5,958 bases of DNA, from assembly GCA_905178155.1 (NCBI GenBank), contig CAJINV010000006.1, forward strand, positions 2,412,172 through 2,418,129, written 5' to 3'. The notes under the pieces were generated by a model. The model did not search any database. It had not been told where the DNA came from and saw only the letters and a list, made by a program, of their open reading frames with translations. The number at the start of each line of letters is the position of its first letter. Positions within the stretch are counted from its first letter, which is position 1. Of this stretch, positions 1 to 5,958 are shown in pieces. The position numbers were made by a program, and so were the translations under genes. This DNA is from Amoebophrya sp. A120 (lineage: Eukaryota; Protista; Dinoflagellata).

Positions 1-32
1 AGCACTCTACTCGCACGCGTGGTCTCACTTCT

Positions 33-71
33 AGAAGACAGAAGCAGAAGTCAGAAGACAGAAGTCAGAAG
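33..71 (+). repeat. AGAAG(A/T)C heptamer microsatellite, about 5.5 units
   Basis: AGAAGAC AGAAGC AGAAGTC AGAAGAC AGAAGTC AGAAG. Confidence 0.85.
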
Positions 72-101
72 AATCGTCGTTTCACCAATTAGTTCGTTCA
101 A

Positions 102-146
102 TGAAGACAGCACACGATCTGTACAAGGAGCTCCTTTTTTCCAAAT
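102..146 (+). repeat. Core repeat copy 1 (45 bp, truncated at its 3' side)
   Basis: TGAAGAC...CCAAAT, then diverges into GATATCAGG. Confidence 0.97.
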
Positions 147-1092
147 GATATCAGGTGGAAGTACCGAAAGGGGAGGACGGAAAAAATACCCCCAGGCGCG
201 GCGAACTAGCACGCAGCCAGGCGCCCGGCCCGAGGTGGGCGCGCAGCCACACACCAGAAGACCTTACGCAACTACCTACCGTATCCAATGGCGAAAAGTG
301 ACCCACGCCCGGCCGCATAGTCGTCAAGGGCTGACAACCCAGGATGGGCCAAGGGCAGTGGTGATATAATGCCTCAGGAGATATGAAGGGGGCGCAGGCC
401 GCATCTGGACAGGCGTCGCGTGCGGTGGCGGTTGCGGCTATCCTCACTGCACACGGTTGGGCAACTACCACGGGGTGAGTGAAGTTATCCTGGAGGCGCG
501 CACAGGTCGCGGCGCAGTGTAGTACTATCCTGAGGTCTTCAGCAAAAACTAAACAGTAAGAGTTTGGTCGCAACAACCAGTAAGTTTTCGTTTTCAGCAA
601 AAGATCACTCGAAGAGCGTAAGACAGGCTCCACGCAGCACTGCAGCATCAAAGCAACAAGTTCGAAAAAAGTAAAAACACAAAAAACAAAACCTTCGACT
701 TCTAGTTCAACTACAGCAAGACTTTAACAAGCTTTCCGTTTACAAAAACAGCTCAACGCAAAAATTTAGACTTTTCAGTTCAACAACCAACCTCTTGATC
801 AATCTACAGACTTTTATTCACTACAGGAACAGTTCAGGCAGACTTGTTAACTTTTCAAAACAGCAATTTTATCAAACGAGCGGTCCTTTTCAGAAGCAAT
901 TTTAACAATCGACTTTTTAAATTTTAAGCAACAATTCCTTTTCGTTAGCAACTCCTTTTCGGTTTTTTCTCAGCAGGCCTAAAGCGGCTCCGGCACACTG
1001 TATTTTTCTTCAAATAGCACTAGAACTACACGAGAGAAGAAAAGACTCTTCACCCGGAATCCGTGTATCCAAAGTCAACAAACAAACAAACA
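147..1092 (+). mobile_element. Cargo A: possible 5'-truncated non-LTR retroelement or retroposed RNA
   Basis: Flanked by a 45-46 bp duplication. GC-rich 5' part (147-540), A-rich G-poor UTR-like part (540-1000), and an (AAAC)n tail (AACAAACAAACAAACA) directly abutting the downstream core. Confidence 0.5.
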
Positions 1093-1146
1093 TGAAGACA
1101 GCACACGATCTGTACAAGGAGCTCCTTTTTTCCAAATACTTACAAA
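1093..1146 (+). repeat. Core repeat copy 2 (54 bp)
   Basis: Exact match to copies 3-5. Contains the perfect palindrome AAGGAGCTCCTT. Confidence 0.97.
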
Positions 1147-1993
1147 CCAGCCACCCCCCGGCGAAGGCCGCCGGGGAGGGGGCTGCTCGGTGGAGGTGTT
1201 CCGGTGGGGAAGGTGGCGCCAGCATTGAATCGCTGCGCGCCGCTTCACAACCAAATAAAAAAATAAAGCTCGGCCCAAGTTGTGGCATGGGTGGGCCCCA
1301 TGCCCGGCCTTAGTAGCTGCGCGCCGTGGGAAAATGCGCACAGGAAAGCATTTGCGGGCACCAACGTTCAAGACGCCACAAGGGCGACGCACCTGCTGCC
1401 AGCGCGCGCGGGCGCTGTGGGAAAGAAGTTGCGGCCACCCTAGGTGGCCGACCAGGTTAAGGCGGGGCGCCGCGCCCCCTCTGGGGGACGCAGAGCGGCG
1501 CACGCACTTTGAACGGCCGCTCTGATCTGAAATTGAAAACAATGCCCGCCGGTCGTTGCGCCCTAGCGAGCTTCTTGAGGGGGCGCCGCGCGCAGACAAG
1601 TCAGCGGGCAGGCTGTGCTCCTGGAGGTGGTCCACGAGAGGGTCCGGGAGAGGGTCGGGGAGAGGGTTCGGGAGAGGTTCAGAGAGGGTCCAGGAGAGGG
1701 TCGGAGAGGTTCCCGGAGAGGGTCCGGGAGAGGGTCGGAGAGGTGCCGAGAGGGTCCGCCGAGAGGTAAAATAGAGGTTCCCGGAGAGGGTCGCGGTAGA
1801 GGGTCGCCTAGAGGGTCGCCCTATACTATGCACCCTCTCCGACCCTCTACACCCTCTTCCCCTACCCTCTACTTGACCTCTCCCCAACCTCTACCCTACC
1901 TCTGCGCGCGTATAGCCCCGCTATAAGGGCGGATATACGGCTCACCCTCTCCCGACCCTCTCCATTACCTCTCGTTTTACCTCTCCCCGACCC
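1147..1993. mobile_element. Cargo B copy 1: 847-bp GC-rich, hairpin-rich non-coding insert
   Basis: Flanked by the exact 54-bp duplication. Contains several perfect stems and mutually complementary minisatellite arrays. Confidence 0.55.
1636..1993. repeat. Purine-rich GAGAGGGTC(C/G)GG minisatellite (1636-1821) followed by complementary GACCCTCTCC-type array (1831-1993)
   Basis: Roughly 10-13 bp units seen directly. TTTTACCTCTC (1975-1985) is the reverse complement of GAGAGGTAAAA (1761-1771). Confidence 0.9.
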
Positions 1994-2047
1994 TGAAGAC
2001 AGCACACGATCTGTACAAGGAGCTCCTTTTTTCCAAATACTTACAAA
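1994..2047 (+). repeat. Core repeat copy 3 (54 bp)
   Basis: Exact match, followed by the 19-bp right end. Confidence 0.97.
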
Positions 2048-2457
2048 TGGTTTAAGTAAGTAACTATTAAAGGTGCAAAAAACTCAGCTCCCGAAACAGC
2101 TCCCAAATTTCTTAATTGAACGCTTCCGGGACCGTCCGAGGGCAGCTTTGCACTTCCGAAAGCGCAAAACCTTTCGACCACACTACGCGCGCCTCTTGAA
2201 GCAGTCTCATTGGTCTTGTCATGGCTCACGATGATCAGACCCCGCGGCGCCTACTGTTTTAAAATATCCAGAAAGGCGGCCGAGATGCTTACTCGTGCGA
2301 CCAGGCGAAGTATCTGCGTAGTTCTTGGCCATTTGCGCGCGGCGGCGTCCCATCTGTGCTCTTTTGGGTCATTTGTGCAGAATAACGCGCCATCTGTGCA
2401 CGATGACGCTTTATCTGGCCGAGAGTGGCCATCGGAGACCGTTTTGCGCGACCAAGT

Positions 2458-2560
2458 CCGAATGCTATAAAAAACACTATGCCGAATGCTATAAAAAACA
2501 TTATGACGAATGCCATAAAAAAGTGCACCCGAACATGATAAAAAACAACACGCCGAAAAG
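2458..2560 (+). repeat. 24-bp tandem repeat, about 4 degenerate units (CCGAATGCTATAAAAAACACTATG)
   Basis: Units start at 2458, 2482, 2506 and 2529, with a partial unit at 2553. Confidence 0.9.
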
Positions 2561-2677
2561 ACAGCGTTAGGTGCGGGTAAGCAACTCAGGAGCAGCCCTA
2601 CCTTTTGACCCCGCAAAACAAAGCTTTTTGTGATGTGCCGGAAGCCGCATCTTTTGCCACTTTTTCTGTGAAAAAGT

Positions 2678-2920
2678 TGCGAAGGTTCCGCATTCCAGAC
2701 GTCCATTCTTCCAGTTTTCGGCTTGCACGTCACAGATTCCATTCCCCATGGAATTTGTGACGCTTGGGCAATTTGGAGTACATGACGAGGAGAGTTCGCA
2801 AATGCGAAGGCTCCGCACGACGAAACTCCATCCCTCAGCTTTTGGCTTGCGCATTACAAATTTCATTCTTCATGGAATTTGTAATGCGTGAGGAACATGG
2901 AATCGCGAGGCGTGGAGTTT
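2678..2920 (+). repeat. Degenerate ~124-bp tandem duplication, each unit containing a hairpin
   Basis: TGCGAAGG(T/C)TCCGCA at 2678/2803, GGCTTGC in both units, ATGGAATTTGT at 2748/2872. Stems at 2728-2762 and 2850-2888. Confidence 0.85.
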
Positions 2921-2967
2921 TTATCTGCGCTACCCAGGCGCCTACTTCGTTTCAAAGGAACCGACGC
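2863..2967 (-). CDS. Tentative second exon (ASVPLKRSRRLG...HEE*); true 3' boundary uncertain
   Basis: Follows the AG acceptor at 2969-2968 and stays open for 34 codons in frame with exon 1. Codon bias fades and the frame runs into a hairpin repeat, so the real exon may end at an earlier GT (e.g. after GCG TCG). Confidence 0.3.
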   Translation of the reverse strand, partial: ASVPLKRSRRLGSADKNSTPRDSMFLTHYKFHEE

Positions 2968-2981
2968 CTTAGTTCGTTCAA

Positions 2982-3035
2982 TGAAGACAGCACACGATCT
3001 GTACAAGGAGCTCCTTTTTTCCAAATACTTACAAA
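2982..3035 (+). repeat. Core repeat copy 4 (54 bp)
   Basis: Exact match, preceded by the 12-bp left end. Confidence 0.97.
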
Positions 3036-3882
3036 CCAGCCACCCCCCGGCGAAGGCCGCCGGGGAGGGGGCTGCTCGGTGGAGGTGTTCCGGTGGGGAA
3101 GGTGGCGCCAGCATTGAATCGCTGCGCGCCGCTTCACAACCAAATAAAAAAATAAAGCTCGGCCCAAGTTGTGGCATGGGTGGGCCCCATGCCCGGCCTT
3201 AGTAGCTGCGCGCCGTGGGAAAATGCGCACAGGAAAGCATTTGCGGGCACCAACGTTCAAGACGCCACAAGGGCGACGCACCTGCTGCCAGCGCGCGCGG
3301 GCGCTGTGGGAAAGAAGTTGCGGCCACCCTAGGTGGCCGACCAGGTTAAGGCGGGGCGCCGCGCCCCCTCTGGGGGACGCAGAGCGGCGCACGCACTTTG
3401 AACGGCCGCTCTGATCTGAAATTGAAAACAATGCCCGCCGGTCGTTGCGCCCTAGCGAGCTTCTTGAGGGGGCGCCGCGCGCAGACAAGTCAGCGGGCAG
3501 GCTGTGCTCCTGGAGGTGGTCCACGAGAGGGTCCGGGAGAGGGTCGGGGAGAGGGTTCGGGAGAGGTTCAGAGAGGGTCCAGGAGAGGGTCGGAGAGGTT
3601 CCCGGAGAGGGTCCGGGAGAGGGTCGGAGAGGTGCCGAGAGGGTCCGCCGAGAGGTAAAATAGAGGTTCCCGGAGAGGGTCGCGGTAGAGGGTCGCCTAG
3701 AGGGTCGCCCTATACTATGCACCCTCTCCGACCCTCTACACCCTCTTCCCCTACCCTCTACTTGACCTCTCCCCAACCTCTACCCTACCTCTGCGCGCGT
3801 ATAGCCCCGCTATAAGGGCGGATATACGGCTCACCCTCTCCCGACCCTCTCCATTACCTCTCGTTTTACCTCTCCCCGACCC
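3036..3882. mobile_element. Cargo B copy 2
   Basis: Identical to 1147-1993 with the same junctions. Confidence 0.55.
3525..3882. repeat. Second copy of the purine/pyrimidine minisatellite pair
   Basis: Part of the 975-bp duplication. Confidence 0.9.
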
Positions 3883-3936
3883 TGAAGACAGCACACGATC
3901 TGTACAAGGAGCTCCTTTTTTCCAAATACTTACAAA
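3883..3936 (+). repeat. Core repeat copy 5 (54 bp)
   Basis: Exact match, followed by the 19-bp right end. Confidence 0.97.
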
Positions 3937-3956
3937 TGGTTTAAGTAAGTAACTAC

Positions 3957-4085
3957 CTCGGTCGCTTTCACCTCGGAACGGGTGGTCTTCTTGCGCAGCA
4001 GGCTTTCGGCCGAGACAACGGTCGCGGAGGCGACGTTGGCGGCGACAGCGCCGAACAGGACCAGGGTCTTCTTGGAGGCGAACAT
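3957..4085 (-). CDS. First coding exon of a putative secreted protein (MFASKKTLVLFGAVAANVASATVVSAESLLRKKTTRSEVKATE, 43 codons)
   Basis: ATG preceded by A-rich context (AAACCCAAAA-ATG). Third codon positions are strongly C/G-biased (TTC GCC TCC AAG AAG ACC CTG GTC...). Basic N-terminus followed by a hydrophobic Ala/Val stretch resembles a signal peptide. Ends at GAG|GT exactly at the element 2 boundary. Confidence 0.75.
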
Positions 4086-5958
4086 TTTTGGGTTTGTGTT
4101 TTTCGCTTCTTTTTTTATCGAAGAAAACAAAAAAAAGTTTTTTTCAGGAACAAAAGCTTTATTCTCGTAGAGGTTGTACTAGTGGTTGGCTTGCTGCCGG
4201 TTTTTTTGAGCCTTGGTTTATTTCAGTATCAGTCGAGGAGTGATGTTTGTTTCCTGTGATCAAAATAGTTTATGGTTGTCTTGTGTGGAACTAAGAAAGA
4301 ACAACCTTTTAGATAGCGACTTCTATTACTTAGTGTATTTTCGAATACTTATCACTAACAGGACGTAGTGCCGCAGAAGTTGTTAACGAGAGTTGAAGAC
4401 GAACTGTAAGTACTTATCATCTGCAGGGGCAGCCTTGGTGTACGACTACGACCACGACATCCACATCAGTGAAGACATATTGATATTTACATACCATATT
4501 CATGACGAAGTTCATGCTTCCCCCGCCGCGAAACAACATCTTACGCGCGATATACTGAACGAGAACGACGTACTTCATGCTTCATAGCAACCGTGGACGA
4601 GGACGACGAAGACGATATCTATTTCAACATTTGCACACGACACAAATTTTTTCTTCTACTACAAGATCTGCCAAGATCTGGTCCATTTCGTCGGGGTGAT
4701 CGTCGTCACAATTTTGCTAGATTTTTCGTGTGGGGCTAGTGTTCTATCCAAGCTTGTACTTACAACTGTAGTCCTCCTATTGGGAGCTGCTGCTATAATC
4801 TCTGGATCTTCGGTGCACATGCACCATTACTTCCTTGCTACAACGCAGACCGACATTATTTGCATCCATTCCGTCACAGGACCATGCACCACGATCCAGT
4901 AATATAGGAAGAAAAGAACATCATCGCACCGTGAAAGCGAGCGGTCGTACGAAAGAACTTAAAAACGTGGGCGGCTGCCATCATGTTGCAAGCATATGAG
5001 CGCCCTGGTTCCTCCCCTGTTCCGTCGATTTTCATCTCCCAGTAGGCTATACTAGCGATAAAAGGTTTTGTCGGATTGTATCTTGAGACGTGGTAGGTTT
5101 CATTCGCAATTCTGTAGTACTTACACTAGAAAATAAGTTTGCTCGCCGTGGCTACCAACATCGCGAGAGGATCGGGTGTGGATTGAAGCAGAATGATGTT
5201 GATTATTAAAGTAGCGGGCTACGCCGCAGGCGCTTCAGAAGTACTCTACTACTCGGGGAAAGTTATATTCTATCGTTGTACAACGGCCGCGCACAGTTCA
5301 TCTCTTTGCCCAGATCATAAATCTTATCCCGTAGAGTAATGCTTTCTTACCCTTCCGTGGCTAGGGCTACTACGTCCTCGAGAAGAGTGGCTGAATATAG
5401 CTGAAAGAAAGGTCGTGGCAACATGATTTGCAGTGTAGATGTAGTACTATAGGCAGCAGGGTACTTAGTACTGAATGAGTACTTTTACCACGTTTAATAT
5501 TCTCTGGGCGGGAAACGGTTAATAAAGGGGATGAAATTGGTTCCATCAGGTTCGTCAATGGGAAGAAGTCTTGTAAGTAAGTACTAACTTTTCACATCCA
5601 CATTGGGGAGAAACAATCAAAGTCTTGGACGAGTTGAGTCGCCAAAAGTTGATCTCTTTGCAGCTGTTTAAAAATGCTTGTTGACGCAATAAAATTGTAT
5701 GTGAATACGAAAAGTAAAGCCTTACAACCCTCTAAAAGATAAATTTACGAGCGATTCTTAAGTAGTGAATGGGCGGCAACATCAAGGTCAAAGTCAGTTG
5801 TGTCGGGTTGCGTCCATAGAGGTAGACGCGGTTGGTGCTCAGTGTCGTGGAAACACTTTCACTTCTACTGTTGACGACTACTACCTAATATCATCCGCCC
5901 CGTCTTGTGATGTAGCAGAGGTTAAAGCACCTCAACTCTTGCAGATGAATCTTTGCTC

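Follow-up and report, generated by a model that had tools for sequence, protein, structure and literature searches.

How did one short sequence come to stand five times beside unrelated inserts of about 0.9 kb? The question is raised by a stretch of 5,958 nucleotides (hereafter the window) of the dinoflagellate Amoebophrya sp. A120 (assembly GCA_905178155.1, contig CAJINV010000006.1, positions 2,412,172 to 2,418,129 of the forward strand), in which a core of up to 54 nt, bordered by two short sequences termed L and R, is interrupted by three inserts, A, B and C. A preliminary description had taken the locus for a small introner-like element, i.e. an intron-generating transposon, which serves as a landing pad for cassettes that a sequence-specific non-LTR (long terminal repeat) retroelement delivers to one fixed nucleotide; the third insert, C, was not part of that description. 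Here, the locus was compared with contigs from public sequencing runs and with published systems of mobile DNA. The account tentatively preferred is that A, B and C are independent dispersed repeats, which may have entered a local hot spot via target-primed reverse transcription (TPRT) with widely spaced nicks, leaving long target duplications of 45-46, 54 and 987 bp.

Cores, duplications and the host gene

The anatomy can be read directly in the window. Copies of the core start at 102, 1093, 1994, 2982 and 3883; the first agrees with the others over 45 nt (46 when a common A is counted), and the remaining copies are alike over 54 nt. From left to right, the flank F1 (1..89) is followed by L (12 nt, 90..101), the first 45 nt of the core (102..146, the duplication flanking A), insert A (946 bp, 147..1092), a 54-nt core (1093..1146), insert B (847 bp, 1147..1993), another 54-nt core (1994..2047, the duplication flanking B), R (19 nt, 2048..2066), which together with the end of the core gives TACTTAC-11 nt-GTAAGTA, and insert C (902 bp, 2067..2968). 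A second L-core-B-core-R copy occupies 2969..3955 and contains B again at 3036..3882. Its 987 bp equal the first copy minus A and one 45-nt core, and the two copies are 100% identical over 975 nt (1092-2066 versus 2981-3955). With A removed, C therefore lies between two identical 987-bp copies, the left edge of this duplication falling at 89-91. A and B are non-coding; A appears from its tail to lie on the plus strand, and B and C probably lie on the minus strand. Deletion of the cargo and one core yields an 85-nt sequence, which is a reconstruction. The core, the cargo and this empty element, with 946 and 847 bp inserted and 45 versus 54 bp duplicated, were reproduced exactly as first described, and the unrelatedness of A and B was confirmed by local similarity scores of 20-23 among A, B and C, no better than the shuffle means of 21-22.

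Three small features of the sequence around the inserts were observed in addition. Both short duplications end at or at most 1 nt from AT dinucleotides (101/102, 145/146 and 2047/2048), of which the 85-mer has four, a pattern noticed post hoc. The core/A junction lies in an imperfect palindrome (139-160, 18 of 22 positions, centre GATATC), and a 7-bp tandem repeat of the AGAAGAC type with 5.9 copies (33-72) stands directly to the left of the insert region.

The second L...R copy borders on an exon of the minus strand (3957..4085, 43 codons). The translated frame matched the A120 protein P0001 with 95% identity over 93% of its length (E 9.9e-14), the sole match among 51 candidates, and is taken as exon 1 of a P0001 paralog. 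This exon stops at GAG|GT, with the GT at 3956-3955, which is the exact start of L...R copy 2; P0001 goes on with residues that the window does not encode, exon 2 lying outside it. Due to the end of the exon at GAG|GT and the absence of these next residues, the locus likely lies within a first intron of more than 3.9 kb or within a broken gene copy. Two RNA-type contigs (run X3) continue from 3956 into exon-2-like sequence as G|CT, their source being possibly paralogs. The raw RNA run X12 contained 0 reads on the window, a result with no bearing either way on splicing.

Copy number and ends of the repeats

Contigs from 5 of 14 public runs were compared with the window, and contig depth and flanks were used to estimate copy numbers, dispersal and truncation. 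Runs X1 and X2 represent one sample, perhaps the source of the window itself. Flanks were listed for 6 of 14 loose ends and for 8 of 46 pieces. Summed contig depth is a rough measure and not a copy number, as rare forms drop out and diverged empty copies may escape. The single-copy depth in X2 was 39-44, obtained from five long contigs, and is the unit used below.

At 1095-1100 the core had a depth of 343, which corresponds to about 8 units, the window itself containing 5 cores. Contigs starting at 1117, the branch point of the 54-nt core, had a summed depth of 289; the exact core-to-B junction accounted for 188.9 (4.5 units) and the remaining exits from the same point for 100.0 (2.4 units), which are presumably core-to-R. 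An empty 85-bp copy was not seen in any record listed, this being an indirect test by contig depth and not a genome-wide count. Because the core depth and the exit depth would both be higher if exact empty copies were numerous, the core appears to be low-copy, with little room for exact empty copies. The proposed self-propagating landing pad or safe harbour is poorly supported by a core of about 8 units where the window already holds 5. The order F1-L-core recurs, in diverged form, at one further locus or more (contig joint 48 to 1109), and F1 and L were found upstream of the core in two contigs with an agreement of 0.97, one of which possibly equals the present locus.

The left end of B is a family terminus, formed by a strong hairpin (z = -3.7 for 1130-1260) and then CTGG|T on the minus strand. 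A 49-nt variant of this end starting at 1146 reached a depth of 544, i.e. 13 units; five contigs carry at least 255 unrelated letters upstream of 1145 or 1146, and a contig of 3.4 kb has only the terminal 51 nt of B in common. Left ends of B, with at least 13 + 4.5 units and five contigs, are to be set against core exits of at most about 7 units. The right end of B lies within a fold-back built from 12-bp repeats, in which 1652 is paired with 1993, and three contigs extend B past 1993/3882 (loose end behind 3883); for these two reasons it is considered a truncation or a variable array end. The fixed junction before TGAAGAC, on which the landing-pad idea was built, is common to A and B as stated, but it is not the natural 3′ end of B and is plausible as such for A only.

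Two further observations concern the start of B. An 848-nt contig (X1, X2) matching 1141-1530 is a diverged B relative with its own left end inverted just upstream in place of the core; the inverted copy measures 36 nt (joint 1141/3034). Moreover, the end of the core together with the start of B (1136-1300 and 3025-3189, plus strand) faintly resembles U1 small nuclear RNA, with ATACTTAC and then hairpins with CGAAGG and ATTGAATC. As a candidate, U1 was rejected, since no U1 covariance match was obtained at E up to 10 (1085-1400) or at E up to 5 (window); the core is mostly absent upstream of the left end of B. No U1 was detected in A120 in the published analysis (PMC7789003).

Insert A is GC-rich in its left part and AT-rich in its right part, and carries an (AAAC)n tail at its right end. 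It belongs to a diverged dispersed family (contig joints 232-306, 340-471, 365-474, 367-455 and 522-665). Loose contig ends lie behind 1089 and 1092 at the right end of A, and unrelated DNA follows the tail in all three relatives for which a flank was listed. In one relative the 10-mer CAATGAAGAC occurs 14 nt past the tail, with a chance of about 2e-5 per 30-nt flank and 27 flanks in all, which may indicate a short preferred target sequence or microhomology. Relatives of the right end of A (956-1092) were also present inside long and deep RNA-type contigs (depth 170, run X3), and this right-end family may often sit in transcribed regions. Left ends of B and right ends of A are mostly located elsewhere than at the core, an outcome that the preliminary description had itself named as speaking against a site-specific element confined to the core.

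For insert C, a twin was found which is identical over 2094-2960, has twice the single-copy depth and extends at least 352 nt into other DNA; the continuation is common to two contigs, and a loose end lies behind 2960. The mean depth of the twin contig was 64.1, with 63.3 expected. The alignment with a diverged C relative starts at 2067 and does not extend leftwards. That two independent insertions landed exactly on both ends of C is very unlikely. C also contains a tandem repeat of 24 bp as well as two palindromic blocks of 66-100 nt that resemble each other, being 73-76% alike (2458-2552 and 2678-2901).

Long target duplications weighed against other origins

According to the preferred account, the inserts would have arrived one by one, mobilised by an enzyme whose gene is presumed to lie elsewhere. 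B would have been the first to enter a resident F1-L-core-R-exon stretch, with duplication of 54 bp, followed by C, which would have duplicated L-core-B-core-R (987 bp), and finally by A, inserted into the left copy with duplication of 45-46 bp. B and C would have kept the left end of their family and lost the right one, as 5′-truncated minus-strand copies would, and A would be a plus-strand copy ending in its (AAAC)n tail. TPRT geometry places the bottom-strand nick at the left end of the duplication whichever the orientation of the insert. A and B may therefore have used the same favoured nick, between 101 and 102, with top-strand nicks at different positions. The 85-bp stretch would then be low-copy target DNA and not a spreading landing pad, possibly an old introner, and part of the preliminary model would be retained in the form of the hot spot.

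A long duplication stands on both sides of each insert, as in the Dualen/R9-like class of elements, which for C presupposes that C is an insert. Dualen-4b insertions of Chlamydomonas reinhardtii have duplications with a median of 900 bp and rotifer R9 LINEs (long interspersed nuclear elements) have duplications of 126 bp (PMC9977147), which backs the earlier link of long target duplications to non-LTR elements. The very long direct duplications, here 45-987 bp, are the point of likeness; in contrast to those systems, the inserts here have no coding capacity, show no relation to one another and crowd into 85 bp, and no reverse transcriptase or endonuclease partner was identified. Non-LTR elements are present in A120 (PMC7789003).

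Several findings weigh against this account. Neither B nor C has a tail at the presumed 3′ end, and no end sequence is common to A, B and C. One reverse transcriptase would usually need a shared end sequence. As the preliminary description had also noted for the window, no enzyme gene was found; neither 15 frames of the window nor P0001 had a Pfam match beyond the cut-off. The core-to-B depth of 4.5 units exceeds the two such junctions of the window, so that more core-B units are expected, in tandem or elsewhere. The region 4330-5480 is likewise at twice the single-copy depth, and the twin of C could therefore belong to a segmental duplicate, C being resident rather than inserted. The 987-bp duplication has inverted repeats of 5 bp at its ends (chance about 0.005), and CCT stands on both sides of L...R copy 2 (chance about 0.017), features which suit a true terminal-inverted-repeat element or introner at an AG|G site better; the preferred account explains neither these 5-bp inverted ends nor the junction shared by A and B. 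Finally, the depth values are rough, come in X1 and X2 from one sample that is maybe the source of the window, and were listed for 6 of 14 loose ends and 8 of 46 pieces. A more specific version, in which an undescribed mobilising enzyme of Amoebophrya nicks the short motif CAA^TGAAGAC, places its second nick 45 to about 990 bp away and piles unrelated, structured, non-coding passengers of 0.9 kb into introner DNA, is considered unlikely.

The rival to be taken most seriously, possible yet rather doubtful, is that L...R is a true small inverted-repeat introner at AGG, with a 3-bp duplication and GT...AG, that has acquired B and was doubled around C, A and B being independent mobile repeats. Its doubling could be due to its own transposition or to recombination between copies, in which, for example, a circle of the element and C integrates by crossover or a deletion occurs at the 5-nt microhomology GCCTT. 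The host is rich in introners, which in A120 carry inverted repeats of 8-20 nt and direct repeats of 3-5 nt (PMC7789003). L...R has TAGTT/AACTA ends, and copy 2, at the end of an exon, shows CCT flanks and, when read on the minus strand, GT...AG and a repeated AGG; AGG would be the natural junction, since the exon goes on as G|CT in the RNA-type contigs, and the extra core-B depth makes a third filled copy possible. The introner setting of the preliminary description thus stands as regards host, exon end and AGG, but its inverted ends are weak and its copy number is low. The terminal inverted repeat comprises 5 perfect bp (8 of 15 positions inside TA), below the 8-20 nt of A120; only TA is a direct repeat common to both copies, CCT being confined to copy 2 and ATTA, with shifted ends, to copy 1, which is without the 3-bp duplication. 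Neither copy is followed by exon 2, and the twin of C has no TA at the site of copy 2. Repetition at many unlinked sites was not found, the core being at about 8 units and the non-B exits at about 2.4 units in an indirect test on one sample. L...R also begins with TAG and not with TAT, and splicing here is putative. The likeness to A120 introners lies in the organism group and, for copy 2 alone, in the exon-end position, the inverted ends, the 3-nt direct repeat and GT...AG (PMC7789003, PMC12130899). No element of 85 bp or 986 bp and no direct repeat of 54 bp occurs in 40 of 58 A120 family rows, which hold no sequences (PMC12130899); short motifs of the core, R and C are absent from 12 of 14 supplement files of the same paper, and TAGTT/AACTA is absent from one supplement file of PMC7789003.

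Other element classes were compared with L...R and rejected. Inspection for an LTR or solo LTR, suggested by the TG at the start of the core and CA at 52, revealed no primer-binding site and no 4-6-bp duplication. Tc1/mariner-type elements show a TA target duplication and clear terminal inverted repeats. A miniature inverted-repeat transposable element of this type (GTT...AAC between TA) was discarded because the twin of C has no TA there and the inverted repeats are weak, though TA flanks both copies. The core/R palindrome was considered as a recombinase site, and its folding was not significant (z = -0.7).

The fixed end of B suggests a further origin, judged improbable, in which B and perhaps C are non-autonomous Helitron-like elements, the duplications resulting from crossover with a core+B circle or from one-ended transposition repaired by copying. 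The hairpin and CTGG|T of B match the terminal hairpin and 3′ CTRR, then T, of Helitron1/Helitron2 (PMC5148889), the duplication ends lie at or at most 1 nt from three of the four AT dinucleotides of the 85-mer (post hoc), tandem units would account for the extra core-B depth, and the 3.4-kb contig has the terminal 51 nt only. Against this stand the other end of B, which in the window copy lacks a 5′ TC (GGGTC, minus strand), the 54-bp duplication, as Helitrons are expected to insert without target duplication (PMC12130899), the simple-repeat tail of A, and a Rep-helicase that was not seen. Somewhat less probable still is that the duplications are partly an assembly artefact, produced when repeat-bounded contigs were joined with overlaps or a segment was written twice. 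The 100% identity of the two copies and the similar size of about 0.9 kb of all three inserts would fit, as would the disagreement between window and matching contig at 4330-5480 (19 letters and 42 gaps), some indels being common to all four runs. Due to such indels against all four runs in the right third of the window, a partial misassembly is possible, which also counts against the TPRT account. No piece listed spans the B-core, R-C, C-L, core-A or A-core junctions, yet short-read contigs reproduce the core-to-B junction with 0 differences over 57 nt at 4.5 units, the non-B exits amount to 2.4 units as two copies of R predict, the interiors of A (482-1089) and C (2094-2960) are exact, and the window contains no N gaps.

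Least probable of all, and only barely credible, is the original model, in which a spreading 85-bp introner, present in many copies both empty and filled, offers a sequence-specific non-LTR element a safe harbour that is spliced out. The junction at 101/102 common to A and B, the 10-mer past the tail of one A relative and the published targeting of transposons by non-LTR elements (PMC4640811) speak for it. Non-specific elements entering at a local hot spot of nicking are the better fit, and a site-specific safe harbour is unlikely, because the core is low-copy, the cargo ends lie mostly off the core and the junction of B is a truncation. Known sequence-specific non-LTR elements include CRE, Tx1 and NeSL/Utopia (PMC4640811, PMC3747384). 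The locus resembles them in having one common junction with variable long duplications, whereas the target here is not multicopy and the cargo ends are mostly at other sites. Penelope-like elements are known for 5′ truncation and 5′ inversions (PMC8557442), and their non-autonomous Chlamys type shares with the inserts a fixed 3′ end, frequent 5′ truncation, 5′-side inverted repeats and tandem copies; the locus differs in having no pseudo-LTR of element sequence, no hammerhead match and no partner protein.

Remaining features of the window and biological meaning

Patterns of the core and B gave 0 matches in viral contigs and 0 in prokaryote genomes, and their sole metagenome match was dismissed as a chance match of 20 nt inside a bacterial-type coding region. 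No tRNA was found in the window, and Rfam returned no significant family, U1 and ribozymes included, in the window or in two sub-regions. The core was considered as coding sequence (open frame MKTAHDLYKELLFSK...) and rejected, as no homologue was obtained. Downstream of a putative AG acceptor, one frame runs open through F1-L-core (35-145 and 2981-3035, plus strand), and the empty form has a 20-codon frame followed by GTAAGT, without homologue and probably due to chance. In the right part of the window, 4987-5958 (minus strand) is a multi-copy region in a poly(A) metatranscriptome (run X8), with a poly(A)-like end at 4987; its indels at 5085 and 5412 relative to all four runs may be assembly errors or indicate a diverged copy. 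The transcribed region near 5373-5744 has no homologue among longer proteins.

In the literature searched, including the combination of introner, nested, hotspot and dinoflagellate, no description of the present locus was found. Many introners and most Amoebophrya repeats are without an assigned mechanism (PMC7789003, PMC12130899), and the locus supplies three passenger families and one candidate nick site. Moreover, long duplications of this kind can be mistaken for the empty and filled states of a small mobile element. If an enzyme piles passengers into introner DNA as outlined above, splicing would hide them, and giant nested introns with kilobase duplications would grow. The three recent insertions in one spot suggest that an alveolate, too, may harbour an active element with very long duplications, as known for Dualen of a green alga.

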